From: Syntrophaceae bacterium UBA4054
GTDB taxonomy: Bacteria; Desulfobacterota; Syntrophia; Syntrophales; UBA4778
Assembly: GCA_002383495.1 (NCBI GenBank)
Contig: DFZO01000045.1
Coordinates: forward strand, 68,442-132,441
Direction of reading: 5' to 3'
DNA length: 64,000 bases
Positions within the stretch are counted from its first letter, which is position 1, and every line of letters starts with the position of its first letter. The position numbers were made by a program, and so were the translations under genes. Positions 11,949-23,791 of this stretch are shown in pieces. Below the pieces are notes generated by a model. It did not search any database, was not told the origin of the DNA, and worked only from the letters and a program-made list of their open reading frames with translations.

Positions 11949-13310
11949 TTACGGTTTCGGGAATTTTTCGATGGCCTTTAACGCTCGTTTGATCTCCTCT
12001 TCCGGTAGCTCGTGAGCCTCCAGCTTTCCCGAAAGATAAGCATCGTAGGACGGCAGATCGATGAGTCCGTGACCGCTCCAGTTGAAGAGGATGATCTTCT
12101 TTTTCCCTTCTTCCTTCGCACGGCGGGCCTCTTCCACCACGGCGGCGATGGCGTGGTTCGTCTCCGGCGCGGGGATGAAGCCCTCCGTTCTTGCCCATTT
12201 CACGCCGACATCAAAGGTTTCAATCTGGTTGTACGCTCGTGCCTCAATGAGTTTTTCCTTGCACAGATGACTGATGATGGGTGACATGCCGTGGTAACGC
12301 AGACCGCCCGCGTGAATCGCCTCGGGCACGAAATCGTGGCCCAGCGTGTACATGGCGAGCAGCGGCGTCATCTGGGCGATGTCTCCGAAGTCATAGGCGA
12401 AGGGCCCCCGCGTCAGGGTCGGGCAGGAGCTGGGTTCGGTGGCGATGATCCGGATCTGCTTGCCGTGGATCTTGTCCCGCACGAAGGGGAGGCTGATCCC
12501 GGCAAAGTTGCTCCCGCCGCCCGCGCAGCCAATGACCACGTCGGGGTAGACGCCGATTTTCGCCAGTTGTTTCTGAGCTTCGAGTCCGATGATGGTCTGG
12601 TGCATGCAGACGTGGTTCAGGACGCTCCCCAGCGAGTACTTTGCGTTCTTGCTCGTCACGGCTTCCTCGATGGCTTCGCTGATGGCGATGCCGAGACTGC
12701 CGGGAGAATCGGGATGGTCGGACAGGACCTTCCGCCCCGCCGCGGTCTCGGTGCTGGGACTGGGAACACAGTTGGCGCCCCAGGTGGCCATCATCATCCG
12801 GCGATAGGGCTTCTGCTCGAAGCTGACACGAACCATGAAGACCTTGCATTCTATTCCAAACATGTGGCAGGCCATGCTGAGGGCGCTTCCCCATTGACCG
12901 GCGCCGGTCTCGGTGCATATTTTCTTGGTTCCCGCCAGCTTGTTGTAGTAGGCCTGGGCCACGGCTGTATTGGGCTTGTGGGATCCCGGAGGACTCACGC
13001 CTTCATTCTTGTAGTAGATCTCCACGGGAGCGTCCAGCAGCTTCTCGAAGTTGCGGGCGCGGCAGAGGGGTGAGGGACGCCAGAGAAGATATTTTTCCAG
13101 GATGGGTTCGGGGATGTCGATCCAGCGCTCCGAGCTCACCTCCTGCTCGATGAGGGCCATGGGGAAAATGGGGGCGAGATCCTGGGGCCCCACTGGCTTT
13201 CCTGTCGCCGGATGGAGCGGGGGCGCCATGGGCGTGGGCATGTCTGCCAGGATGTTGTACCATTGTCTGGGAATTTCACTGTCCTTTAATAATACCTTTG
13301 TTTCTTCCAT
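11949..13310 (-). CDS. trpB: TrpB2-type tryptophan synthase beta chain (stand-alone, PLP-dependent)
   Basis: 453 aa, the TrpB2 length class. Motifs GAGQWGSAL and GGGSNFAG. No trpA or other trp genes are adjacent. Confidence 0.85.
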
Positions 13311-13348
13311 GATGCGTCCTCCTTTTTATATGTATTGTCTTACTCTCA

Positions 13349-13380
13349 ATAAAAAAGCCATGGACATAACCCATGGCTTG
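13349..13380 (-). terminator. Attenuator terminator in the trpB2 leader
   Basis: Minus strand reads AAGCCATGG-GTTATGT-CCATGGCTT followed by TTTTT. It lies ~40 nt upstream of the trpB2 ATG. Confidence 0.7.
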
Positions 13381-13437
13381 ATTTTCTTTTGTTCCAGCCA
13401 TGGGAAGGTCCCCCCTTGCCCACGGCCCATTGTATTG

Positions 13438-13518
13438 TCAGAATGGACTTCCTGTGGACAGGCCTGTCATTGCCTGCCACCACCACATTTCGCTTTCCAT
13501 TATTTGTTTCGTTTTCAT
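13438..13518 (-). CDS. Trp-rich leader peptide MKTKQIMESEMWWWQAMTGLSTGSPF
   Basis: Hand translation of the minus strand gives ATG at 13518, three consecutive TGG codons at 13485-13477 and TGA at 13440-13438. AAGGTGA lies 8 nt upstream of the ATG. This ORF is not in the supplied track. Confidence 0.65.
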   Translation of the reverse strand: MKTKQIMESEMWWWQAMTGLSTGSPF

Positions 13519-13606
13519 GAAAAACATCACCTTTCGGTGATTGGCTAACATACTGGCAACTGGGTGTCAAGATAAAAATCGCCTTGCGAGGGGGCGGAAT
13601 GGAACC

Positions 13607-14152
13607 TCAGGGCAGGGATTTCATCAAAATGATCATGTCGTCATTGTCCTTGTAGTAATGGGGGACGCGAGCGACCTCGACATAACCGTTTCTCCGGTAA
13701 AAGGTGCGCGTGGGCTCGTAGTCCTCCCGGGAGGATGTCTCCACGTATATATGCCGTCCCTTTCTTCCGGAAATTCGCTTCTCCGTCTCGTCGACGAGAA
13801 TCTTTCCGATCCCCTTGCCCTGCATGTCCTTTCTCACGGCGATCCAGTACATGTCGTAACGATGATCCGTTGTCTGAATGGGGCCGTAGCAGACATATCC
13901 CACGCATTCCCGATTCCTGTCGGCGAAGATGAAAGAGAAGATGCTTTCCTCTTTCCATTTGATCTGGTCGTCGAGGAGATCGATGGCCACGTCTATTTCA
14001 TAGGGATAAAACAGTTGTGTCGAAAGAAGGATCTTTTTCAGGGCCGACCGGTCCCGGACACGGGCCCCGGTCCTCAGGGTGATCCGATCCTCTGCGTTCG
14101 CGAGGGCTGAAGCCTTTCGAGGCTGCCGGGAGGGAGGGGTGAATGATTTCAT
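13607..14152 (-). CDS. GNAT family N-acetyltransferase
   Basis: The motif Q-G-K-G-I-G-x-x-L (MQGKGIGKILV) is the acetyl-CoA-binding core. The gene starts 3 nt after the stop of the upstream ATP-grasp gene. Confidence 0.75.
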   Translation of the reverse strand: MKSFTPPSRQPRKASALANAEDRITLRTGARVRDRSALKKILLSTQLFYPYEIDVAIDLLDDQIKWKEESIFSFIFADRNRECVGYVCYGPIQTTDHRYDMYWIAVRKDMQGKGIGKILVDETEKRISGRKGRHIYVETSSREDYEPTRTFYRRNGYVEVARVPHYYKDNDDMIILMKSLP

Positions 14153-14155
14153 GAC

Positions 14156-15133
14156 TTACCTGCAGGCCACGGCGATCATTTCCCGGACGAAATCTTCGTT
14201 GGTGTAGCCTGCCTCTCTCACCGAAGAAATGAAGCCCGACTCCCCGCCGATGCAGGGGTTGGGGTTGATTTCGATGATATAGGGATTTCCCCACTGGTCG
14301 AGACGCATATCCACGCGGGTGTAACCTTTCAGGTTAAAGATGTGCCAGCAGCGAAGGGATATTTCCTTGATGAGGTTGAGAGGGGCGTCTTCGGGGGTAA
14401 AGGTTCGCTGGGTATTTTCGTATTCGAAAGAATCTTCAATCCACTTCGCGGCGTAATTGACGATTCGGGGTTTATCCTCGGGCCACTCTTCAAAGGTGAT
14501 TTCCGATATGGGCAGGACCTCCACGCCCGTTTCCGCTTTCTCAAAGAGGGGAACGTTGATCTCCCGGCCGTCGATGTACTGCTCGATGAGAATGGGCTGT
14601 CCGCCATGCTGCTCATGCATCTCGCGAAGTTTCTTTGTCAGGTGTTTCCGGTCTTCCAGGATGGAGCTGTCGTCGATGCCCACCGAGGCATCTTCCCATG
14701 CCGGCTTCACGATCCATGGCGGCGGGACTTTCAGCGGGATCATTTTCCCCCGGAATTCCTGCCACGAGGGGGTCGGGAGGCCATTGGCCGTCAGAATATT
14801 CTTGGCGAGAATTTTATCCGTTGTCGTCAGCAGGGCCTGAAAGGGAACGCCCGTATAGGGGAACCCGGACATTTCGTAAAGAGACGCGACCATGGGGCAA
14901 TAGCGCTGGTCGTCGTTCAATCCCTCGAAGAGATTGAAGACAGCCGCGGGAGAATAGTCCTTCAGCTGCGACAGGAGCTGCAGGAGAGGATCGTTCGTTT
15001 CCCCGATCGGGAAAGACTGGTGCTCATAACCCAGGTTGTTCAGCGCCTCCCGGACCATGGTGACCTGGTCCAGGACGTCAATGGAGTCCAGCCTGTCCGC
15101 CACGGGTTCGTTGTAAACAATGGCCACTTTCAT
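14156..15133 (-). CDS. D-Ala-D-Ala ligase-family ATP-grasp enzyme (paralog 2)
   Basis: 325 aa. Ddl-like layout: MKVAIVYN N-terminus, IVKPAWEDASVGI and YIIEINPNP (Mg-ATP site). Confidence 0.75.
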   Translation of the reverse strand: MKVAIVYNEPVADRLDSIDVLDQVTMVREALNNLGYEHQSFPIGETNDPLLQLLSQLKDYSPAAVFNLFEGLNDDQRYCPMVASLYEMSGFPYTGVPFQALLTTTDKILAKNILTANGLPTPSWQEFRGKMIPLKVPPPWIVKPAWEDASVGIDDSSILEDRKHLTKKLREMHEQHGGQPILIEQYIDGREINVPLFEKAETGVEVLPISEITFEEWPEDKPRIVNYAAKWIEDSFEYENTQRTFTPEDAPLNLIKEISLRCWHIFNLKGYTRVDMRLDQWGNPYIIEINPNPCIGGESGFISSVREAGYTNEDFVREMIAVACR

Positions 15134-16146
15134 ATCTGCTGCCTCTTTTCGTTGAAAAAAACCCTTCGCTTGAGGGCCGATTGAATAATTTCATTGAGAA
15201 GCTCAGGATAAGGAAGGCCCGCCTGGCTGCACAGGATCGGGAGATCCGAGTGAGTAGGATGGAGGCCGGCCAGGGGATTGGCTTCGAGAAAGTGGAGCCG
15301 GCCCTGACCGTCGGCCTTGAGGTCGATCCGCCCGGCATCCCGGCATCCCAGGACCCTGTATGATCGGAGGGCGATATCGGAGGCTTCTTCAATGATTGAA
15401 TGATCCAGAACGAGGGTGTAGCGCACCCGTTCCTCGCAGAACTCCTTGTTCAAAAAGGAGTAGACGAGTGGATCGGCGCTTTCCAGGAGTTCCACTTCCA
15501 GGACGCCCACGGCCCGGGCGCTTTCACCCGTACCGAGGATGCCCACCGTGAATTCCCTCCCCGGGAGATAAGACTCCACGATGACCGGCTGTCCGTAACG
15601 GGAGAGAAGCCGTCTGCACTGGGCCGTCAGTTCCTTCCGGTGGTGAACGATGGATTCAGGGGTCACGCCCTTGCCGGTCCCTTCAGCCAGCGGTTTGACA
15701 AAGAGAGGGTATCCGATCTTCCGGTCTTTTTTCTCTGCCTTCAGGGCTTCCAGGGACGTCACGATGAAAAAATCGGGCGTGGGGATTCCGGCGTCCCGGA
15801 CCATGCTCTTGGTCATGGCCTTATCGAGACTCAGGGCGAGCGTCAGGGGGTCGCTGAAGGTGTAAGGAATGGTATAGGCTTCGAGCAGGGCCGGCACCTG
15901 CGCTTCCCGGCTCCGTCCGTGCAGCCCTTCGGTGATGTTGAAGACGATATCCCATGTCTCGCCCGCTGCCAGCCGTTCCGTCAGGCTGAAGATGTTTCCT
16001 ATCCGGATCACGTCGTGGCCGAGGCCGCGGATCGTCTCTTCAATCAATTGGATGGTTTCGTCGCTGTCAAACTCTCCCGTCTCTTCTTCCGTGTAACCCA
16101 TCTGGAGATAATCTCGTCTGAGGTCATAGGTAAACCCTATCCTCAT
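15130..16146 (-). CDS. D-Ala-D-Ala ligase-family ATP-grasp enzyme (paralog 1)
   Basis: Start reassigned to MRIGFTYDL, with ATG at 16146 forming an ATGA overlap with the kamA stop. Motifs FVKPLAEGTGKG and HFLEANPLAG. The 148-aa upstream extension in the ORF track overlaps kamA. Confidence 0.75.
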   Translation of the reverse strand: MRIGFTYDLRRDYLQMGYTEEETGEFDSDETIQLIEETIRGLGHDVIRIGNIFSLTERLAAGETWDIVFNITEGLHGRSREAQVPALLEAYTIPYTFSDPLTLALSLDKAMTKSMVRDAGIPTPDFFIVTSLEALKAEKKDRKIGYPLFVKPLAEGTGKGVTPESIVHHRKELTAQCRRLLSRYGQPVIVESYLPGREFTVGILGTGESARAVGVLEVELLESADPLVYSFLNKEFCEERVRYTLVLDHSIIEEASDIALRSYRVLGCRDAGRIDLKADGQGRLHFLEANPLAGLHPTHSDLPILCSQAGLPYPELLNEIIQSALKRRVFFNEKRQQI

Positions 16147-17513
16147 GCCTTCTCCCCCTTCATCTTGAAGAGAAGGTTTTTCTTTCTCCTGCGGTACCTC
16201 GGGGTTTCTTCGGGAACCAGGGCCTTCCTCGATCCTTTGATCAGCTGGGCGGTGCCGCCGTCCTTGCCGTTGCCGTTCGACTTGCGCGACTGGATGAAGT
16301 AAGCCTCCTGGGGGTTGTAGTACTTGATAATCATGCCCTCGTAATTTCTCAGGAGCACATCCTTGTCCGTCACCGAGAGAAGATAGAAGGGCTGGAGCGG
16401 TACTTTCCCTCCGCCTCCGGGAACGTCCACGACGAAGGATGGGATGCAGAGACCTCCGGTATAGCCGCGGAGCATCTCGATGATCTCGATTCCCTTCCAG
16501 ATGCTGGTCCTGAAATGTTCCACGCCTTTGACGGGATCGCACTGGAAAAGATAGTAGGGGCGGACCATGATCCTCTGCAGGGCGTGGCAAAGATCGCGCA
16601 TCACGTCGATGGAGTCATTGATGCCCCTCAGGAGGACGGCCTGATTCGATACGGGGATGCCCGCTCTGAGCAGCTTGTCGCAGGCCGCCTGGGAGTCCGG
16701 GGTGATCTCCTTGGGATGATTGAACTGGGTATTGAGCCAGAGGGGGCGGTGCTGGGCCAGCATGTCCACAAGGTCATCGGTGATCCGCATGGGCATAACC
16801 ACAGGCACCCGGGTGCCGATTCTCAGGACTTCCACGTGCTGGATCATCTGCAGCTCGCCCAGAAACCAGTCGAGGACGTTCATGTTCATGACCAGGGGGT
16901 CGCCGCCTGAAACGATGACCTCTCTCACCTCAGGTGTTGCCCGAACGTAGTTGATCATGGACTGAAGCTCTTTCCTGGACCGGATGGATTCGCCTTCATG
17001 CCAGATTCTTTTGCGGGTGCAGTGGCGGCAGTACATGGCGCAGGTGTTCGTGACCACTGCGAGGACCCTGTCGGGATATCGATGCACGAGGCCGGGCACC
17101 TGCATGTCCTCTTCTTCCTCGAGCGGGTCATGATCTCCAACGATCTGAAACTCCGTCTCCCTGAAGTCGGGAATGCACTGCTTTCGGATCGGGTCTTCGG
17201 GGTCGGACCAGTCGATCAGAGAAAGATAGTAGGGTGTGATGGAATAATGAAACAGCTTGAGGAGGGTCCTGTATTTGGAGATCTGGTAAGGGCTCAGTTG
17301 GAACAGAGTGGCCAGGGCATCGACCGTTCGGAGCCGGCTGGCCATCTGCCACGTCCAGTCGTTCCACTGGTCGACTGTTGTGTCGGGCCAGAGCTTCTGA
17401 ATTACATAATCGCCTCTGAAAAGGTCTTCACCATGGAGATGAGAAGCCAGTGATGAGACGACGTTTTTGCCCGGAGGCTCGTCATCTTCATTCGTCACTA
17501 TTCTTGCGTCCAT
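16143..17513 (-). CDS. kamA: Lysine 2,3-aminomutase (radical SAM, PLP)
   Basis: CAMYCRHCTRK cluster, PGGGGK PLP-lysine motif and ITPYYLSLI. Both lysine-epsilon-amine-binding Asp residues are retained: QCD at nt 16536-16538 and VVD at nt 16425-16427. Confidence 0.9.
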   Translation of the reverse strand: MDARIVTNEDDEPPGKNVVSSLASHLHGEDLFRGDYVIQKLWPDTTVDQWNDWTWQMASRLRTVDALATLFQLSPYQISKYRTLLKLFHYSITPYYLSLIDWSDPEDPIRKQCIPDFRETEFQIVGDHDPLEEEEDMQVPGLVHRYPDRVLAVVTNTCAMYCRHCTRKRIWHEGESIRSRKELQSMINYVRATPEVREVIVSGGDPLVMNMNVLDWFLGELQMIQHVEVLRIGTRVPVVMPMRITDDLVDMLAQHRPLWLNTQFNHPKEITPDSQAACDKLLRAGIPVSNQAVLLRGINDSIDVMRDLCHALQRIMVRPYYLFQCDPVKGVEHFRTSIWKGIEIIEMLRGYTGGLCIPSFVVDVPGGGGKVPLQPFYLLSVTDKDVLLRNYEGMIIKYYNPQEAYFIQSRKSNGNGKDGGTAQLIKGSRKALVPEETPRYRRRKKNLLFKMKGEKA

Positions 17514-17704
17514 GTCTCCTCCTTATGTGCTCCTTTGGCGTTTCCCTGAGCTTCCCCTGCGGAACCTCGTTCTGACTGATTTGGTGTGATCGCTCTGTTT
17601 GTTTGAAGCACGGCGAGTTCTTTTTCCCATCATCTCACGGAGGGCAGGAGGCTCAAGGGTTTGTGAGTGAACGGGAAATCACGTGACATATGTCGAATGA
17701 TTTC

Positions 17705-17732
17705 GCTATAACATTTTTTTAAAACATGTCAA
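17705..17732 (-). promoter_or_regulatory. Sigma70-like promoter for the kamA operon
   Basis: Minus strand: TTGACA (17732-17727), 16 nt spacer, TATAGC (17710-17705). The dyad CGACATATGTCAC starts 11 nt downstream. Confidence 0.45.
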
Positions 17733-17785
17733 GCGTATTTTGCGTTTTTTAGGAATTTTTTTTCAAAAATTTTTCGTTCCCTTTG

Positions 17786-17837
17786 AAAAAAAACGCGACC
17801 TTCGCTGAGGCGCGTCTTCTCTGGGTTTGCGAAGGTC
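17786..17837 (-). terminator. Terminator downstream of the suhB-like gene
   Basis: Minus strand: GACCTTCGC pairs with GCGAAGGTC (9 bp), followed by GCG and T8. Confidence 0.5.
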
Positions 17838-17850
17838 ATCTTTCTGCGTC

Positions 17851-18678
17851 TCACGGATGTATCTTCAGGAAGATGGACGAGGTGGAGGCGATGGAGATGG
17901 GGTTGATGGACTGAAGCAGGCGCAGCATCGCGCGGTGCACCCGTCCATTGGAGGCAACGATCCCGGAAGATGAGAGCTGATAAGGATTTCCTGAGATATC
18001 GCTGAGGGTCCCTCCGGCTTCCCTTATCATGAGTGACGCCGCCGCGGTGTCCCATGGATGGAGCTTTAATTCCCAGAACCCGTCGAAGCGCCCTGCGGCA
18101 ACATACGCCAGATCAAGGGCTGCGGAGCCCGCGCGCCGGATGGCCTGTGCTTTCAACGCCATTCCGATGAAGTAGTTCATGTTGTTGTCCGCGTTGCGGC
18201 GGATGTCGTAGGGAAAACCCGTGGCAAGCAGACTCCGGGAAAGCGCCGATGTGCCGGATACGGAAAGTCTCCTGCGGTTCAGGAAGGCGCCCCTGTTCTT
18301 TTCCGCCACGAAAAGCTCCCGGAGCATGGGGTTGTAAATCACGCCGAGAATGACGTCCCCTTTCTTCTCGAGGGCGATGGAGACGCAGAACACGGGATAC
18401 CCGTGGGCGTAATTGGTGGTCCCGTCCAGGGGATCGATGATCCACCGGTAATCGGACCCCCGATCGATCCCTTTGGATTCCTCCGTCAGAATGTCATGAT
18501 CGGGAAAGCGCTTCCGGATTTGCGAAACAATCATGTCTTCGGAGAGACGGTCTTCCTCTGTCACGATGTTGATCTCGCCTTTATAATGAACGGTGTGTGT
18601 GTCGTGACACCGCGCTTTCAGGAAGGCACCCGCTTCTCTGGCTATGGCCACGGCAAAGGCCCTGTAATCCCGAATCAT
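17851..18678 (-). CDS. suhB: Inositol monophosphatase family protein
   Basis: Motifs WIIDPLDGTTNY and a GAAALDL-like SAALDLAYVAAG. Start chosen at MIRDYRAF because GGGGAGA lies 7 nt upstream; the ORF track starts 15 nt earlier. Confidence 0.8.
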   Translation of the reverse strand: MIRDYRAFAVAIAREAGAFLKARCHDTHTVHYKGEINIVTEEDRLSEDMIVSQIRKRFPDHDILTEESKGIDRGSDYRWIIDPLDGTTNYAHGYPVFCVSIALEKKGDVILGVIYNPMLRELFVAEKNRGAFLNRRRLSVSGTSALSRSLLATGFPYDIRRNADNNMNYFIGMALKAQAIRRAGSAALDLAYVAAGRFDGFWELKLHPWDTAAASLMIREAGGTLSDISGNPYQLSSSGIVASNGRVHRAMLRLLQSINPISIASTSSIFLKIHP

Positions 18679-18784
18679 CGCACATCTCCCCATGCATCCA
18701 AAAATCCGGGGGGGATTATATCCACACTCAAAGGGAGAATGCCAGAAAATTGAGAAAAGGGACGGGGGTCAGAAGAACTTTTTA

Positions 18785-18813
18785 TTGATTAGCCTTGTGA
18801 TTGATGTTAAATA
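18785..18813 (+). promoter_or_regulatory. Possible sigma70-like promoter upstream of the rodZ-like gene
   Basis: TTGATT (18785-18790), 17 nt spacer, TAAATA (18808-18813). Confidence 0.3.
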
Positions 18814-18851
18814 TAGAATCATACGTGTAAATCGCTGGAAAACGGATAACG

Positions 18852-19742
18852 ATGAAAAACGCAAAGGCAGAAAGACCGGTGACAGGTTTCATGGAACCCT
18901 ATCCCGATCTCAGGGCTCTGAGAGAATCCCACGGCAAGACATTGAAGGACATTTCTCAGAAGACCCGGATCAGGGTGGCCTATCTGGAAGCGATTGAGGG
19001 CGGCCGGTTCAAGTCTCTCCCGGAACAGACCTATGCCGAGAGTTTTATCAGGACCTACGGGCACGAACTGGGTGTCGACAGCGTCACGATCCTTTCCCAC
19101 TACAGAAAATACCTTAGAGACCAGGCCGGGGTCCCGGAAGACAAGGTCGGGAAGCTCCCGAAAAAGAAACCCGGGAGTACGAAGGCGCCCGTGGATATGG
19201 CCCGCTGGTTACGGGAACATGTCACGGTCTTTCGCTGGATGGGAGCGCATCTGAAAGTCCTGGGGTGGACCGCTGCCGTTCTGCTGGTCGCAGGAGCCGT
19301 TTTCTTTTTCATCTTCACCGATGACGATACGGATTCCGACCTGTCCCGGGCGCCGGCCTCTGTGAGCGTTGCCAAGAACACTCCGGCTGAGACACCGGTG
19401 AAGCCCGCAGAGCCCACCGGGGAGGAAGGGAAGGAAGGAGCTGCCGTGACCGCGCCGGTATCCCCGACGCAGCCGGAAGCCAAACCGGAAGCGGCCCCTT
19501 TGAGACTGGTCATCACCGCAACACAGACCACCTGGGTCAGGATTACGGACGATGACAACCCGTCCTATCAGATTCTCCTGAAGCCCGGTGACACGGTGGA
19601 GAGACAGGCGGAGAAGGTTTTTGCCGTCGATGTGGGAAACGCCGGGGGGATCGATATTCAGTTTCAGGGAAAATCTCTGGGGAGTCTCGGGAAAAGCGGA
19701 GAAGTGGTCCACCTGACCCTGCCGGAGGGAACACCGCGCTGA
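18852..19742 (+). CDS. rodZ: RodZ-like cytoskeleton protein (HTH, TM segment, Pro-rich linker, DUF4115-like C-terminus)
   Basis: N-terminal XRE-type HTH (LKDISQKTRIRVAYLEAIE), a TM segment AAVLLVAGAVFFFIF, and the C-terminal motif GNAGGIDIQFQG. Confidence 0.7.
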   Translation: MKNAKAERPVTGFMEPYPDLRALRESHGKTLKDISQKTRIRVAYLEAIEGGRFKSLPEQTYAESFIRTYGHELGVDSVTILSHYRKYLRDQAGVPEDKVGKLPKKKPGSTKAPVDMARWLREHVTVFRWMGAHLKVLGWTAAVLLVAGAVFFFIFTDDDTDSDLSRAPASVSVAKNTPAETPVKPAEPTGEEGKEGAAVTAPVSPTQPEAKPEAAPLRLVITATQTTWVRITDDDNPSYQILLKPGDTVERQAEKVFAVDVGNAGGIDIQFQGKSLGSLGKSGEVVHLTLPEGTPR

Positions 19743-19797
19743 AGTCCTTTGCGGCAGGAGGACAAGTTTCAGAATGCGCGGACAAATAATTATTCTT

Positions 19798-19946
19798 CAG
19801 GCTGTTCAAAAACGTTTAGATGCAAGGCGCGCATGGTTCGCAGTTCGACAAGCTCACTGTGACATCGCTCACCATGACAAATTGTAAGCCTGCCCTGTCG
19901 AAGGGCGAAGCGCAACGCCGCAAATGGGCGTTTTTCAACGGCCTAC
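19798..19946. mobile_element. MITE-like repeat, copy A
   Basis: Left end CAGGCTGTTCAAAAACG. The right end CGTTTTTCAACGGCCTAC is an imperfect inverted repeat of it. Internal modules are shared with copies C, D and F. Confidence 0.65.
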
Positions 19947-19961
19947 TGTGAGGGAAAAAAC

Positions 19962-20153
19962 ATGTTTGGACTAGGAATGCCAGAACTCATTGTGATCCTG
20001 GTGATCGTCCTGATCATCTTCGGTGCCGGTAAGCTTCCGGAGATCGGGGGCGCCATCGGGAAAGGAATCAAGAACTTCAAGAAATCCATGCACGACAAAG
20101 ATGAGATCGACGTTACCCCGGACTCAACGAAGATCGATAACAACAAGAAATAA
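19962..20153 (+). CDS. tatA: Twin-arginine translocase subunit TatA/E
   Basis: [27 protein letters not shown] is the canonical TatA N-terminus. Confidence 0.9.
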
Positions 20154-20169
20154 CAAAGGCCACTGTGCA

Positions 20170-20583
20170 TCAGAAGGGAACATCGTCATCGGGCGTATGC
20201 TCTGATGCGGAATGGGGAGCCGGCTGATCGCCCCAGCCTTCCGGGCCTTTGGCCTGTCCCTTTGAATCGAGCATTCGCATGTTCGACGCAATGATTTCCG
20301 TCGTTGAGCGTTTGATTCCGTCCTTGTCGTCCCACGACCGTGTCTGCAGCCTGCCTTCGATATAGATCTGTTTTCCTTTTGAGAGGTAGCTCTGGCATAT
20401 TTCCGCCAGCTTCCTGAAAGCAACGATCCGGTGCCATTCTGTCTTCTGGACTTTTTCGCCGTCCTTGTTTTTGTAGCTCTCGTCGGTCGCCAGCCTCAGA
20501 TTAGCCACCATGGTCCCGTCAGGCGTAAACCGGATCTCCGGGTCCGCACCGAGCCGACCGATCAATATGACCTTGTTCACCAT
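20170..20583 (-). CDS. ssb: Single-stranded DNA-binding protein
   Basis: [18 protein letters not shown]-fold start and acidic C-terminal tip DDDVPF. Confidence 0.9.
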
Positions 20584-20766
20584 ACACCTTCCTCCCTCGT
20601 ATTGGGTTGCTCGTCGAGCTATTCATACACAATTTGATGACCCTTGGCAAATGGAATGTGGAGCCTTTCTCCGATGGATTCCGTATTGACTTCGCGGGAC
20701 GGTTCCGGTAAAAATTACAGCAGGGTTTTCAAGACATAATATAATGTTCAACTTCTGGATGGTTCG

Positions 20767-21486
20767 ATGCTTCGTTCGGTGGTTCTGGTTCTTCTCGCCG
20801 GTCTGTGGACGGGAGGGGTTTCCACGTTCATCATTCTTGGTTACCCGTTTTTTCCCCGGGGGGAATATACGGTCCACGAGATTGCGCGGAGGTGGGCGAA
20901 GGGAATTCTCTGGTTTTCCGGCGTGAACGTCCATGTCATCGGCGGTAAGCATGTCCTTCAGGACAGGCCCCAGATTTTCATGGCCAATCATCAGAGTTTG
21001 TTTGATATCTTTATTGTCCTCGCCTTTATTCCCGCCCAGTTCCGCTTTATCGCCAAGAAGGAGCTCTTCCGGGTGCCGCTATTCGGAGGCGCTTTAAGGA
21101 AATACGGCACCGTGGAGATCAACCGGCAGCACCATGCCAGCGCGGTCAAGAGCATTGACGCGGCGGCGCAAAAGATCCGGGAGGGGAAATCGGTCGTCAT
21201 CTTTCCCGAGGGAACAAGGAGCATCGACGGCGAGATCAAGGCTTTCAAGAAGGGCGTCTTCCATCTGGCGTTGAAGGCCGGAGTGCCCATCGTTCCCATC
21301 TCGATCATCGGGAGCAGGGAGATCATGTCGAAGCATTCTCTCAAGGTCAATCCGGGAAAAATAACCGTGATCTTCGATCGACCGATCCACATCGATGGTT
21401 ACTCGGAGGAAAGCCGTGACGAACTGATCGCCCGTGTCCGGGATGTGGTCATTGGGAATTTCGACAGGGAAAAATCGGATGAATGA
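20767..21486 (+). CDS. plsC: 1-acyl-sn-glycerol-3-phosphate acyltransferase
   Basis: NHQSLFD (HX4D) and FPEGTRS motifs. Confidence 0.85.
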   Translation: MLRSVVLVLLAGLWTGGVSTFIILGYPFFPRGEYTVHEIARRWAKGILWFSGVNVHVIGGKHVLQDRPQIFMANHQSLFDIFIVLAFIPAQFRFIAKKELFRVPLFGGALRKYGTVEINRQHHASAVKSIDAAAQKIREGKSVVIFPEGTRSIDGEIKAFKKGVFHLALKAGVPIVPISIIGSREIMSKHSLKVNPGKITVIFDRPIHIDGYSEESRDELIARVRDVVIGNFDREKSDE

Positions 21487-23791
21487 ACGATCCATATCTC
21501 CCGAACGATGGAGAGAGATTCTGGGCATCCTCTTCCTGGCGCTGGCGCTCTTTTTCATCCTGTGCCTCTTTTCCTATGACCCCGCAGACCCCTCTTTTGC
21601 CCATTCCGTGACAGGCAGCGTCAGGATAAACAACCTCTGCGGATTTGTCGGTTCCTACAGCGCCGACGCCCTGATCCGGTTCATGGGGGCAAGCGCCCTC
21701 TGGCTTCCAACCCTTCTGATTGTGATGGCCATAAGGCTCTTCAGGAAAGATGCGGGCGAGATCGGCGGATGGATGATCGGCGGGTATGCGGGCCTCGTCT
21801 TTGCCACAGCAGGGCTTCTGGCCCTTGCCTTCGGCCAGATTCGATTCCGCGGATCAGGACTCTCGGCGGGCGGGATGATGGGAAACTTCTCCGTCGAGTT
21901 TCTGAAGTCTTATCTCAACACAACAGGGACACTCATTCTTCTCATCCTCGTATTTGTCATCGCCCTGATGATCACGGCCGACCTCTCCATGGTGGTGCTG
22001 GTCAGGGGCGCCGCCGACAGAATCAGGGAAGCCTGGTCGCGTCTGGAGAACACGATCCTGGAGAAAATGGAACGCGGGGAGAAGGACATTCCTGAAGAAA
22101 CGGAGCCTCCTCCGCCCATCGTCGATGTGAAAGAGACCCCAGCGGAGCGGGAGACAAAACCGGTTCCCCTGATCCTGGAAGATATTCCCCAGCCGCCGGA
22201 GCTGAAGGCCAGGAAAAGGAAAGGTGAACAAGCTGCCTTCGAGTTCGTTCATGAAAAAAACGCCTTCCGGCTGCCGCCCCTCACCCTGCTGGATGATCTG
22301 AAGCGGGGCGACGCAAAAATCAAGAAAGAGAGCCTGATTGCGAACGCCAGGATCCTGGAACAAAAGCTGGCCGATTTCGGTGTGGAAGGCCGCGTGGTTG
22401 AAGTGAAGCCGGGCCCGCTCATCACCATGTATGAGCTCGAGCCGGCGCCGGGGGTCAAGCTCAATCGGATCACCAACCTCTCGGAGGACCTGGCCATGGC
22501 CCTGAGAGCACCGAGCGTCCGGATTGCTCCCATATCGGGGAAGGCTGTCGTGGGCATTGAAATTCCGAATCAGGAGCGGGAGCCGGTCCATCTGAGAGAC
22601 GTGCTCGATCATACGATCTTTCTGGAGTCCAGGTTCAGGCTTCCCATCGCCCTGGGCGAGGACATCGTGGGAACACCGGTGATCACAGACCTTGCCCGAA
22701 TGCCCCATCTCCTCATCGCGGGCACGACGGGTTCGGGGAAAAGCGTGTCCCTCAATGCCATGATCTGCAGCATCCTGTTCAAGGCCGCGCCCGATGAAGT
22801 AAAGTTCCTCATGATCGATCCCAAGCGGCTCGAATTATCCGGGTACGAGGGCATACCGCACCTCCTCCACCCGGTCGTCGTAAACCCGAAGGACGCCTCC
22901 CAGGTTCTCCGGTGGGCTGTGGCGGAGATGGAGCGGAGGTATCGGGTCATCGGCGAGAGCGGGGTAAAAAGCATCGAGCGGTTCAACAGGCTCGTGGAAA
23001 AGGAGAGCTTCCTCAAGGAGCGCTCTTCCCATGCGGCGAAGCATGAGATCACCGACGAAGAGGATGAGACACCCGAAACGCCCTTCCCCGTTGAGATCAC
23101 CCATGTCGGCGAGGGCGAGTCCGCAAAGGTCCCCTTTGAAAAACTGCCCTATATCGTCATTGTCATAGACGAACTGGCCGACCTCATGATGGTGGCGCAA
23201 CGCAACGTGGAGGAATCCCTCACCCGGCTGGCGCAGATGGCGAGGGCCGCGGGCATCCACCTGATTCTGGCGACCCAGCGGCCGTCCGTGGACGTCATCA
23301 CGGGCATCATCAAGGCCAACTTTCCCACCCGCATTTCCTTCCAGGTCTCGTCGAAAGTGGATTCCAGGACCATCCTGGATCAGCTCGGCGCCGAGCAGCT
23401 CCTGGGCTCCGGCGACATGCTCTTCCTGCCTCCCGGGACGTCTCGGCTGTCGCGGATCCACGGTGCCTACGTGTCTGAGAAGGAAATTGAGAGGATCGTC
23501 GGCTTCATAAAAAATCAGGCGCAGCCGAGGTATGACGAATCCATCCTGAAAAGCCAGCCGGAGACGGCAAACGGCGAAAAAAAGGATGAGGACTTTGACG
23601 AAAAATACGATGAAGCCGTGGAACTCGTGACCGACCTCGGACAGGCATCGATCTCTCTCGTTCAGCGCTACATGAAGATCGGGTACAACCGGGCCGCCCG
23701 AATCATCGAGAGGATGGAGGCGGAGGGGGTTGTGGGGCCCTCCGACGGCGTCAAGCCCCGAAAGGTCCTGGCGAAGAAGCTTCCAAAATGA
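21479..23791 (+). CDS. ftsK: DNA translocase FtsK
   Basis: N-terminal TM segments, a Pro-rich linker, Walker A GTTGSGKS, and the C-terminal gamma domain (LVQRYMKIGYNRAARIIE). Start set at ATG 21479 (MNERS), overlapping plsC by 8 nt. Confidence 0.9.
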   Translation: MNERSISPERWREILGILFLALALFFILCLFSYDPADPSFAHSVTGSVRINNLCGFVGSYSADALIRFMGASALWLPTLLIVMAIRLFRKDAGEIGGWMIGGYAGLVFATAGLLALAFGQIRFRGSGLSAGGMMGNFSVEFLKSYLNTTGTLILLILVFVIALMITADLSMVVLVRGAADRIREAWSRLENTILEKMERGEKDIPEETEPPPPIVDVKETPAERETKPVPLILEDIPQPPELKARKRKGEQAAFEFVHEKNAFRLPPLTLLDDLKRGDAKIKKESLIANARILEQKLADFGVEGRVVEVKPGPLITMYELEPAPGVKLNRITNLSEDLAMALRAPSVRIAPISGKAVVGIEIPNQEREPVHLRDVLDHTIFLESRFRLPIALGEDIVGTPVITDLARMPHLLIAGTTGSGKSVSLNAMICSILFKAAPDEVKFLMIDPKRLELSGYEGIPHLLHPVVVNPKDASQVLRWAVAEMERRYRVIGESGVKSIERFNRLVEKESFLKERSSHAAKHEITDEEDETPETPFPVEITHVGEGESAKVPFEKLPYIVIVIDELADLMMVAQRNVEESLTRLAQMARAAGIHLILATQRPSVDVITGIIKANFPTRISFQVSSKVDSRTILDQLGAEQLLGSGDMLFLPPGTSRLSRIHGAYVSEKEIERIVGFIKNQAQPRYDESILKSQPETANGEKKDEDFDEKYDEAVELVTDLGQASISLVQRYMKIGYNRAARIIERMEAEGVVGPSDGVKPRKVLAKKLPK

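Follow-up and report, generated by a model that had tools for sequence, protein, structure and literature searches.

A four-gene cassette of a KamA-type aminomutase, two Ddl-fold ATP-grasp ligases and a GNAT acetyltransferase, a candidate operon for an undescribed beta-lysine-derived metabolite

Several described systems rearrange an amino acid with a KamA-family aminomutase or join small building blocks through ATP-dependent amide bonds. In blasticidin-type pathways, the arginine 2,3-aminomutase BlsG is accompanied by an amide-forming ligase, and in methanogens and some bacteria the AblA/AblB pair, a lysine 2,3-aminomutase (LAM)-type enzyme and a GNAT acetyltransferase, yields N-epsilon-acetyl-beta-lysine. 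The EpmA/EpmB (YjeA/YjeK) system for beta-lysylation of elongation factor P (EF-P) is linked to efp, and the yjeK gene of Syntrophus lies next to efp (PMC2821294). Ngg couples N-acetylation with peptide-bond formation to give N-acetylglutaminylglutamine, the precursor of the dipeptide osmolyte N-acetylglutaminylglutamine amide (NAGGN) (PMC8070244). The locus described here, a cassette of four genes in a 64,000-nucleotide stretch of DNA from Syntrophaceae bacterium UBA4054 (contig DFZO01000045.1, positions 68,442 to 132,441; the whole stretch is called the window below), encodes a KamA-family aminomutase, two different ATP-grasp ligases of the Ddl fold (AG1 and AG2) and a small GNAT. It is considered rather likely that the four genes constitute a single operon, complete in itself, for the biosynthesis of a small metabolite derived from beta-lysine, and the product predicted from the enzyme set is probably an undescribed beta-lysine-derived acetylated amide or peptide.

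The four genes run head to tail on the minus strand, as follows.
16143-17513, minus strand: KamA, radical-SAM/pyridoxal phosphate (PLP) aminomutase family, open reading frame (ORF) of 456 amino acids (aa)
15130-16146, minus strand: AG1, Ddl-fold ATP-grasp ligase, ORF of 338 aa with the start MRIGFTY
14156-15133, minus strand: AG2, second and divergent Ddl-fold ATP-grasp ligase, ORF of 325 aa
13607-14152, minus strand: small GNAT N-acetyltransferase, ORF of 181 aa

As read from the sequence, the KamA/AG1 junction (GGCATGAGG) and the AG1/AG2 junction (GATATGAAA) each hold an ATGA stop/start overlap, at 16143-16146 and 15130-15133, respectively, and AG2 is separated from the GNAT gene by three nucleotides (TAAGTCATG); ORFs and sequence together confirm the coordinates and the close coupling that the initial annotation had reported for these genes. 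No second KamA, Ddl or GNAT paralogue is present within the window, and none of the four proteins matches the PADLOC anti-phage defence models.

The same four families are found together well beyond the Syntrophales. The order KamA-AG1-AG2-GNAT recurs in Nitrospiraceae, Nitrospinae, another member of the Syntrophales, Dehalogenimonas, a Bacteroidetes metagenome-assembled genome (MAG) and Ca. Acidoferrum, and the order AG1-AG2-GNAT-KamA occurs in Ignavibacteriaceae, Gemmatimonadaceae and one Altiarchaeota archaeon, giving at least eight bacterial lineages and one archaeon with a spread over Syntrophales, Nitrospirota, Nitrospinota, Bacteroidota, Ignavibacteriaceae, Gemmatimonadaceae, Acidobacteriota, Chloroflexota and Altiarchaeota. 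Flanking genes vary by lineage and are shared by the other Syntrophales locus. In a metagenome set of 80 loci, obtained by a scan with the AG1 alignment and counted only where the flank sufficed, KamA is present in 49 of 53 loci, AG2 in 52 of 56, a GNAT (E<1e-8) in 28 of 37 and the complete set of four in 25 of 32; identity to the window proteins is 52-60% for AG1, approximately 40-55% for KamA (75% at one locus) and 31-44% for AG2 and the GNAT. No member of the cassette is better conserved than AG1, whose identity to the window protein is 61-70% at the loci of Syntrophales, Nitrospiraceae and Nitrospinae but falls to 34-37% in Ignavibacteriaceae, Gemmatimonadaceae, Dehalogenimonas and Altiarchaeota. 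Its family comprises 835 representative clusters at E<=1e-30, and at E<=1e-20 AG2 can be matched to 1,149 relatives, some of them from Thermodesulfovibrionia, Ca. Magnetobacterium, KSB1, FCPU426 and Phycisphaerales.

Gene fusions join the same partners. GNAT and KamA form a single 547-aa protein in Altiarchaeota; AG2 and GNAT, separate in the window, are one protein in many relatives (L014, P0233, P0235, P0237, P0241, P0243, P0250 and P0268); AG1 and AG2 are united in two-domain proteins of 640-790 aa (P0287, P0295 and P0389); and KamA is fused to AG1 in P0308 and P0435, so that every adjacent gene pair is represented by some fusion. Because the co-occurrence spans phyla and the fusions join every adjacent pair, chance adjacency is excluded, and the comparison of neighbourhoods across genomes (at least nine lineages in all) bears out the view that the four families belong together.

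The assignment of lysine as the starting compound depends on KamA, which carries the Pfam domains Radical_SAM and LAM_C (the latter at residues 345-445 of 456) and whose translation contains the motifs CAMYCRHCTRK, QCD, VVD and PGGGGK. Its best NCBIfam model is AblA (TIGR03820), at 509.7 bits, short of the 525.4 cut-off, followed by the models for glutamate 2,3-aminomutase (461 bits, cut-off 650), arginine 2,3-aminomutase (371, cut-off 600) and EpmB (248, cut-off 369); the other cassette KamAs tested likewise score best on AblA, at 465-510 bits, and below its cut-off. Alignment with the LAM of Clostridium subterminale (PDB 2A5H; E 1.9e-126, query residues 40-436) pairs C158/C162/C165, R167, D326, D363 and K370 of the window protein with C125/C129/C132, R134, D293, D330 and K337, the QCD motif supplying the counterpart of D293, VVD that of D330 and GGGGK that of K337. 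In LAM, R134 binds the alpha-carboxylate of the substrate, D293 and D330 its epsilon-ammonium group and K337 the PLP cofactor; both aspartates are reportedly replaced in glutamate 2,3-aminomutase. Across eight cassette KamAs with just 41-76% identity to the window protein, the CxxxCxxC motif, R167, D326, D363 and K370 do not vary. With both epsilon-amine aspartates retained and AblA the best model, the prediction of lysine as substrate made in the initial annotation is upheld, and the reaction predicted for KamA is the conversion of L-lysine to beta-lysine.

Outside the active site, the cassette KamAs depart from the Clostridium enzyme. Counterparts of C268, C375, C377 and C380, the zinc ligands of Clostridium LAM, are absent in all of them (C268 is replaced by Ser, S304, in the window), and the quaternary structure may differ from the Clostridium tetramer, since the cysteines of the zinc positions are gone and, in one clade, a basic C-terminus stands in their stead. 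The basic C-terminal tail of approximately 60 aa that had been ascribed to the window protein shrinks on alignment: the match to 2A5H extends to residue 436, where GTAQLIKGSRKALVPEE pairs with GVAGLLNGEGMALEP, and most of the supposed tail is normal LAM_C region, but roughly 20 terminal basic residues, TPRYRRRKKNLLFKMKGEKA, are indeed extra. A basic C-terminus of the form RK.NGNGK.GGTAQLLKG.RKALVPEETPRY.RR.KN (window 16143-16300) is common to the KamA clade of Syntrophales, Nitrospirota and Nitrospinota. Long-type cassette KamAs are also extended at the N-terminus, and the extension bears an acidic E-E-x-E-P-P-[GS] motif, which reads DDEPPGK in the window (17400-17513, residues 1-38), is shared with L016, L038, L042, L048, L051, L052, L073, L089 and L009, and is unmatched in 2A5H, the alignment beginning at residue 40; the extension is missing from the short KamAs found in Ignavibacteriaceae, Gemmatimonadaceae and Altiarchaeota. 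The acidic motif could be a docking site for partner enzymes.

The two ligases prove to be distinct enzymes, as had been proposed: both match the Pfam domain Dala_Dala_lig_C, and they share 27% identity with each other. Neither approaches the thresholds for D-Ala-D-Ala ligases, AG1 and AG2 scoring 162 and 113.7 bits on the NF002378 Ddl model (cut-off 243) and 136.6 and 106 bits on TIGR01205 (cut-off 245.65). The AF2 models (pLDDT 90.9 for AG1 and 91.7 for AG2) have the three-domain Ddl fold, and the top Foldseek matches of both ligases are all Ddl, with TM values of approximately 0.72-0.85 and 19-28% identity (best matches at TM ~0.75-0.81 and 24-28% identity for AG1 and at TM ~0.78 for AG2). 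AG2 additionally shows a weak match to the L-amino-acid ligase BL00235 (3VOT, 1.9e-9).

Mapping of Escherichia coli DdlB residues onto alignments of the two families (with the DdlB reference verified from residue 48 onward) separates a conserved catalytic apparatus from an altered pocket. The equivalents of K97, K144, E187, K215, R255, D257, E270 and N272, which serve ATP, Mg and the transition state, are invariant in both families, and the equivalent of E180 is invariant in AG1 and replaced by Gln in one of eight AG2 sequences. The D-Ala subsite of DdlB is made up of the triad E15/S150/Y216 together with H63, M259 and L282. At the position of H63, by contrast, both ligases carry Glu (Asp in one AG2 sequence); E68 is replaced by Arg in AG1, Y216 by Glu, Arg or Trp in AG1 and by Trp in AG2, M259 by Lys or Arg in both, L282 by Asp, Cys or Arg in AG1 and by Gly in AG2, and S150 by Ala or Gly in AG2. 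A role as ordinary Ddl was accordingly rejected for AG1 and AG2, both of which lie under every Ddl cut-off with the D-Ala pocket residues replaced. As the catalytic residues are invariant, the two are very probably active carboxylate-amine ligases that make something other than D-Ala-D-Ala. The acidic and basic residues gained by the pocket hint at charged substrates, for example a diamino acid together with a partner that bears a further carboxylate, although this is only a suggestion.

The fourth protein matches Acetyltransf_1, Acetyltransf_7 and Acetyltransf_10 in Pfam, and its best NCBIfam match is RimI, at 60 bits and under the 86-bit cut-off. When set against the AblB model, a comparison that the initial annotation had proposed, the GNAT gave no match among the NCBIfam results at E<=1e-3; it weakly matches the spermidine acetyltransferase PaiA (22 bits), and among solved structures PDB 2R7H is by far its nearest relative (100 bits, E 9.6e-28, residues 22-176). 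On these scores, the GNAT probably belongs to the 2R7H family and is not of the AblB type.

A further clue to the product comes from an optional fifth gene of approximately 590 aa, which lies between AG2 and GNAT or just past GNAT in 11 loci (L081:8013-9797, L048, L089, L062, L067, L016:8275-10524, L041, L021, L092, L029 and L051) and is fused to the cassette GNAT in L016. It encodes a weakly GNAT-like N-terminal region followed by a histone-deacetylase-family domain (Pfam), and its best PDB relatives are acetylpolyamine amidohydrolases (APAH; 260 bits, E 2.6e-76), against approximately 127 bits for bacterial histone-deacetylase-like amidohydrolases. When flanking ORFs were clustered over roughly 90 loci, this GNAT-like/APAH gene was the only recurrent neighbour family; no conserved transporter, regulator or membrane protein emerged. 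Because it is nearest to APAH and alone recurs, the fifth gene points to a small-molecule substrate with an N-acetylated aminoalkyl group, as in N-epsilon-acetyl-beta-lysine.

From the gene structure, residue conservation, fold, co-occurrence and fusions, a candidate pathway can be put forward in which the catalysis, order of steps, ligation partners and role would be as follows. KamA, through radical-SAM/PLP chemistry suggested by its conserved active-site residues, would convert free L-lysine to beta-lysine (3,6-diaminohexanoate). AG1 and AG2 would then form one amide bond each, at the cost of one ATP each and via an acyl-phosphate intermediate, in the manner of the Ddl/L-amino-acid-ligase family. 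The GNAT would use acetyl-CoA to acetylate a free amine, either on beta-lysine or on a ligated intermediate, the epsilon-aminoalkyl end being the likeliest target because some relatives add an APAH-like deacetylase able to reverse the step; in those lineages, that enzyme would take the acetyl group back off. The product would be an amide resembling a di- or tripeptide, N-acetylated and with beta-lysine as a constituent, or else a short oligomer of beta-lysine, and the logic of the pathway would amount to that of AblA/AblB joined with a NAGGN-type step, namely Ngg-like acetylation plus peptide-bond formation. With the ligases co-conserved and non-Ddl and the GNAT non-AblB, the earlier suggestion of a di- or tripeptide, an oligomer or an acylated solute in place of plain acetyl-beta-lysine gains support. 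In its most specific form, in which an N-acetyl-beta-lysyl di- or tripeptide or an oligo-beta-lysine pseudo-polyamine is made by a four-enzyme route, independent of nonribosomal peptide synthetases, in at least eight bacterial lineages and in Archaea, the proposal is judged evenly balanced between right and wrong. The product would most likely be a cytoplasmic solute, either a stress-protective compatible solute or a polyamine-like compound, as neither an exporter nor an immunity gene, precursor peptide or regulator is conserved with the cassette and its surroundings in Syntrophales are of a housekeeping kind; this assignment of a role is the weakest part of the explanation.

Several considerations weigh against the proposed operon for a beta-lysine-derived solute. 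Every step of the pathway is deduced from sequence, and a different basic amino acid is still conceivable as the KamA substrate, because its AblA score falls just under the cut-off. AG1-like genes occur without KamA at L047, L076, L077, L078 and L087, so AG1 may act on something other than beta-lysine itself. Nothing ties the cassette to osmotic or any other stress, and its host lineages are not particularly halophilic; the pairing of a GNAT with a deacetylase is also typical of antibiotic self-protection and of polyamine homeostasis. Nor does the leader upstream of KamA offer a regulatory signature: over approximately 200 nt it is no more stably folded than shuffled sequence (z -1.3 in the window and -0.8 in the Syntrophales relative L013), and an Rfam scan of 13000-19000 at E<=1 found no known riboswitch, the sole match being a chance miRNA.

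Among the rival explanations, a cationic oligo-beta-lysine, with homeostasis based on acetylation, deserves to be taken seriously although on the whole it is unlikely. The cassette would in that case make a beta-lysine homo-oligomer or polymer that serves as a pseudo-polyamine or antimicrobial, with AG1 and AG2 initiating and extending the chain and the GNAT and, where present, the deacetylase providing detoxification or homeostasis by way of acetyl groups that do not belong to the finished product. Streptothricins carry a beta-lysine chain, and acetylation of a beta-lysine amine is a means of streptothricin resistance. The acidic residue at the H63 position of both ligases fits a diamino acid as acyl donor, and the APAH kinship of the accessory enzyme and the weak PaiA match of the GNAT agree with a polyamine-like product; the basic residue at the M259 position of both ligases, however, suits a nucleophile with an extra carboxylate and not beta-lysine, no exporter or recurrent membrane protein appears among the flanking ORFs, and the deacetylase is limited to a minority of loci.

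Less probable again is attachment of beta-lysine, acetylated or not, to a macromolecule, whether a protein (at a side chain or a terminus), in the manner of RimK or EpmA, or a peptidoglycan precursor. There is precedent in the beta-lysylation of EF-P by EpmA/EpmB (PMC2821294), Ddl-fold enzymes are cell-wall enzymes and the target need not be encoded in the cassette, but Syntrophus has its own yjeK linked to efp (PMC2821294). Moreover, KamA, which has a C-terminal domain, is a LAM/AblA-type enzyme and falls well short of the EpmB model (248 bits against 369), no conserved candidate target gene lies nearby, and the deacetylase is closer to the small-molecule APAH than to protein deacetylases. 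An aminoacyl-tRNA synthetase-like or EF-P domain was not found among the Pfam-annotated genes of L001, L011, L013, L094 and L095, nor was one recurrent across the flanks of the roughly 90 loci, neither having been searched by name. One cassette locus is archaeal, and we would expect an archaeon to have neither EF-P nor murein. Modification of EF-P in particular was rejected as the function, given a KamA that is not EpmB-like, a separate yjeK in Syntrophus and an archaeon that carries the cassette.

The view that the genes are chance neighbours with ordinary functions, in which KamA and the GNAT would make N-epsilon-acetyl-beta-lysine (or KamA would start lysine fermentation) and the ligases would be cell-wall Ddl, has very little probability. 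Databases do label the ligases 'D-alanine-D-alanine ligase', and AblA is the nearest model to KamA; against this stand ligases far under the Ddl cut-offs with an altered D-Ala pocket, a GNAT that does not match AblB, cross-phylum co-occurrence and fusions of every adjacent pair. Genes of lysine fermentation (kamA-kamDE-kdd-kce-kal, with beta-lysine 5,6-aminomutase and the catabolic enzymes after it), not searched by name, are not recurrent in the roughly 90 flanks, in which only the GNAT-like/APAH family recurs, and in the window the cassette is flanked by a SuhB-like and a TrpB-like gene. Lastly, a graspetide-type cluster for a peptide of ribosomal synthesis with post-translational modification (RiPP), with KamA as an additional tailoring enzyme, is barely credible: the gene content resembles that of microviridin clusters, with two ATP-grasp ligases and a GNAT (MdnB/MdnC/MdnD), but no conserved precursor peptide emerged when 773 small ORFs lying up to 700 nt from the cassettes of the roughly 90 loci were compared all against all (only truncated pieces of AG2 and out-of-frame shadow ORFs were shared across loci). 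By fold and by family assignment the ligases are of the Ddl type, and KamA retains its binding residues for the free alpha-carboxylate and the epsilon-amine of lysine. A dedicated operon for a small beta-lysine-derived metabolite is preferred over all four.

Features consistent with expression of the cassette as a unit lie at its two ends, as listed below.
17705-17732, minus strand: promoter-like site, TTGACA (17732-17727), 16 nt, TATAGC (17710-17705), from sequence reading and conservation in L013
17516-17524, minus strand: ribosome-binding site AAGGAGGAG, a few bases 5' of the KamA ATG, from sequence reading
13355-13379, minus strand: terminator-like hairpin with an 11-bp stem followed by TTTTATT, from a pattern scan (consensus match only)

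The first two lie in the 337-nt intergenic region 5' of KamA, where an A/T-rich stretch precedes the promoter-like site; a leader starting from that site would be approximately 190 nt long. In L013, a Syntrophales relative whose cassette proteins are 55-76% identical to those of the window, the counterpart reads TTGACA-16-TATTAC, with hexamers and spacing kept. The site was missed by a consensus scanner because its -10 hexamer ends in C. The GGAGG of the ribosome-binding site is kept in L013 and in L004, a cassette locus with 93-98% protein identity to the window, and a short block, CCCTCCGTGRGATG, of the leader region (window 17514-17740, minus strand; L013:6296-6633) is kept in L013. The leader also holds CCTCCT and CCCTCC blocks complementary to the GGAGG of the ribosome-binding site, of which the CCCTCC block is conserved. 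At the other end, the hairpin lies roughly 230 nt past the GNAT stop and ahead of a gene for a TrpB-like PLP enzyme (11949-13310, minus strand; NF009057, 744 bits), which is directly downstream. That gene is syntenic in L013 and not in other phyla and is probably unrelated to the cassette, its synteny being limited to the Syntrophales relative. Upstream, a gene of the inositol-monophosphatase family (SuhB-like) occupies 17851-18693 (minus strand), and genes for RodZ-like, TatA, SSB, PlsC-type acyltransferase and FtsK proteins follow at 18852-23791, in the same order as in L013; the surroundings of the cassette are a housekeeping neighbourhood conserved within Syntrophales.

Elsewhere, the neighbours of the cassette are specific to lineages. 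An ArsB/CitMHS permease and an MFS transporter accompany it in Dehalogenimonas, and DUF3014 and PhoU_div/PiT genes do so at other loci; being non-recurrent, such genes were rejected as general cassette members. In the Ignavibacteriaceae locus L006 (9758-11221), a group II PLP-dependent decarboxylase gene follows KamA on the same strand, which suggests a lineage-specific further modification, for example decarboxylation to a diamine. A small protein of approximately 82-91 aa with a VIPADWND..EV-like motif is encoded 5' of KamA in three loci (L053:1453-1701, L082:3386-3634 and L073:3552-3827) and is not general. KamA-less AG1-like genes (L076:1126-2994, L047, L078 and L008; 52-57% identical) adjoin a gene for a 305-aa protein without a Pfam match; genes of approximately 600 aa near some of them (e.g., L047 and L076) resemble the indolepyruvate-ferredoxin-oxidoreductase alpha subunit, as judged by N-terminal sequence only, and the AG1 frame of the Spirochaetota MAG L008 is split into three pieces. 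These loci may represent a second context for the AG1 ligase family.

All of the enzyme families involved are known, as are the logic of pairing an aminomutase with an acetyltransferase and that of pairing a GNAT with ATP-grasp chemistry. The gene combination, both ligase subfamilies and the product appear to be undescribed, in agreement with the initial annotation, which knew of no characterized pathway of such composition: no description of the cassette was found in the searchable literature, whose coverage largely stops short of subscription journals. The AG1 and AG2 families are now annotated as 'D-alanine-D-alanine ligase', 'RimI-like' or 'hypothetical', which misleads both cell-wall and osmolyte inference in metagenomic studies that count ablA/ablB-like genes as evidence of acetyl-beta-lysine. 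If the proposal is true, a major unrecognized cytoplasmic solute may exist in uncultured anaerobes such as Syntrophales, Nitrospirota, Nitrospinota and Dehalococcoidia. A new beta-lysine solute or polyamine analogue would enlarge the small list of beta-amino-acid metabolites, two new specificities of amide-forming ATP-grasp enzymes would serve beta-peptide biocatalysis, and the cassette would provide a testable physiological trait for syntrophs, nitrite oxidizers and organohalide respirers that are hard to culture. As it comprises only four genes and is self-contained, it is amenable to direct testing by heterologous expression.

Set against the systems from which its parts are familiar, the cassette shows consistent likenesses and differences. 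With Ddl and the Ddl-fold L-amino-acid ligases, AG1 and AG2 share the three-domain fold and the ATP, Mg and transition-state residues, but their pocket residues are changed, their identity is 19-28% and their partners are KamA and a GNAT in place of mur and fts genes. The nearest solved relative of the cassette GNAT, 2R7H, is a structural-genomics entry named 'putative D-alanine N-acetyltransferase of GNAT family'; the searchable literature yielded no paper on its function, and the name appears to derive from neighbouring 'Ddl' annotations. The EpmA/EpmB system resembles the cassette in that a KamA-family aminomutase supplies beta-lysine and an ATP-dependent enzyme ligates it through an amide bond, whereas EpmB represents a truncated clade and EpmA is a paralogue of lysyl-tRNA synthetase and not an ATP-grasp enzyme. 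Blasticidin-type pathways, in turn, join the beta-amino acid made by a KamA-family aminomutase through an amide bond; the cassette KamA, however, attains 371 bits against 600 on the arginine-aminomutase model, nucleoside-biosynthesis genes are lacking, and the hosts are uncultured anaerobes in place of actinomycetes.

The closest parallels are offered by Ngg/AsnO and AblA/AblB. Like Ngg/AsnO, the cassette is predicted to make an N-acetylated small peptide by a non-ribosomal, ATP-dependent route, and the AG2-GNAT fusions of relatives would combine the two activities alike; it differs in adding a second ligase and an aminomutase, in its predicted building block (beta-lysine and not glutamine) and in showing no detected membership of the same sequence families, and no AsnO-type amidotransferase turned up, either among the called genes of L001, L011, L013, L094 and L095 or as a recurrent flanking gene, AsnO itself not having been queried. 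With the LAM of Clostridium, the cassette enzymes would share the reaction without sharing C268, C375, C377 and C380. AblA/AblB has in common with the cassette a LAM-type aminomutase with its lysine-binding residues kept and a GNAT; the cassette KamA nevertheless falls slightly under the AblA cut-off, the cassette GNAT is of the 2R7H type, approximately 160-180 aa long and without an AblB match, and between the two genes the cassette places two ATP-grasp ligases that are co-conserved with them or fused.

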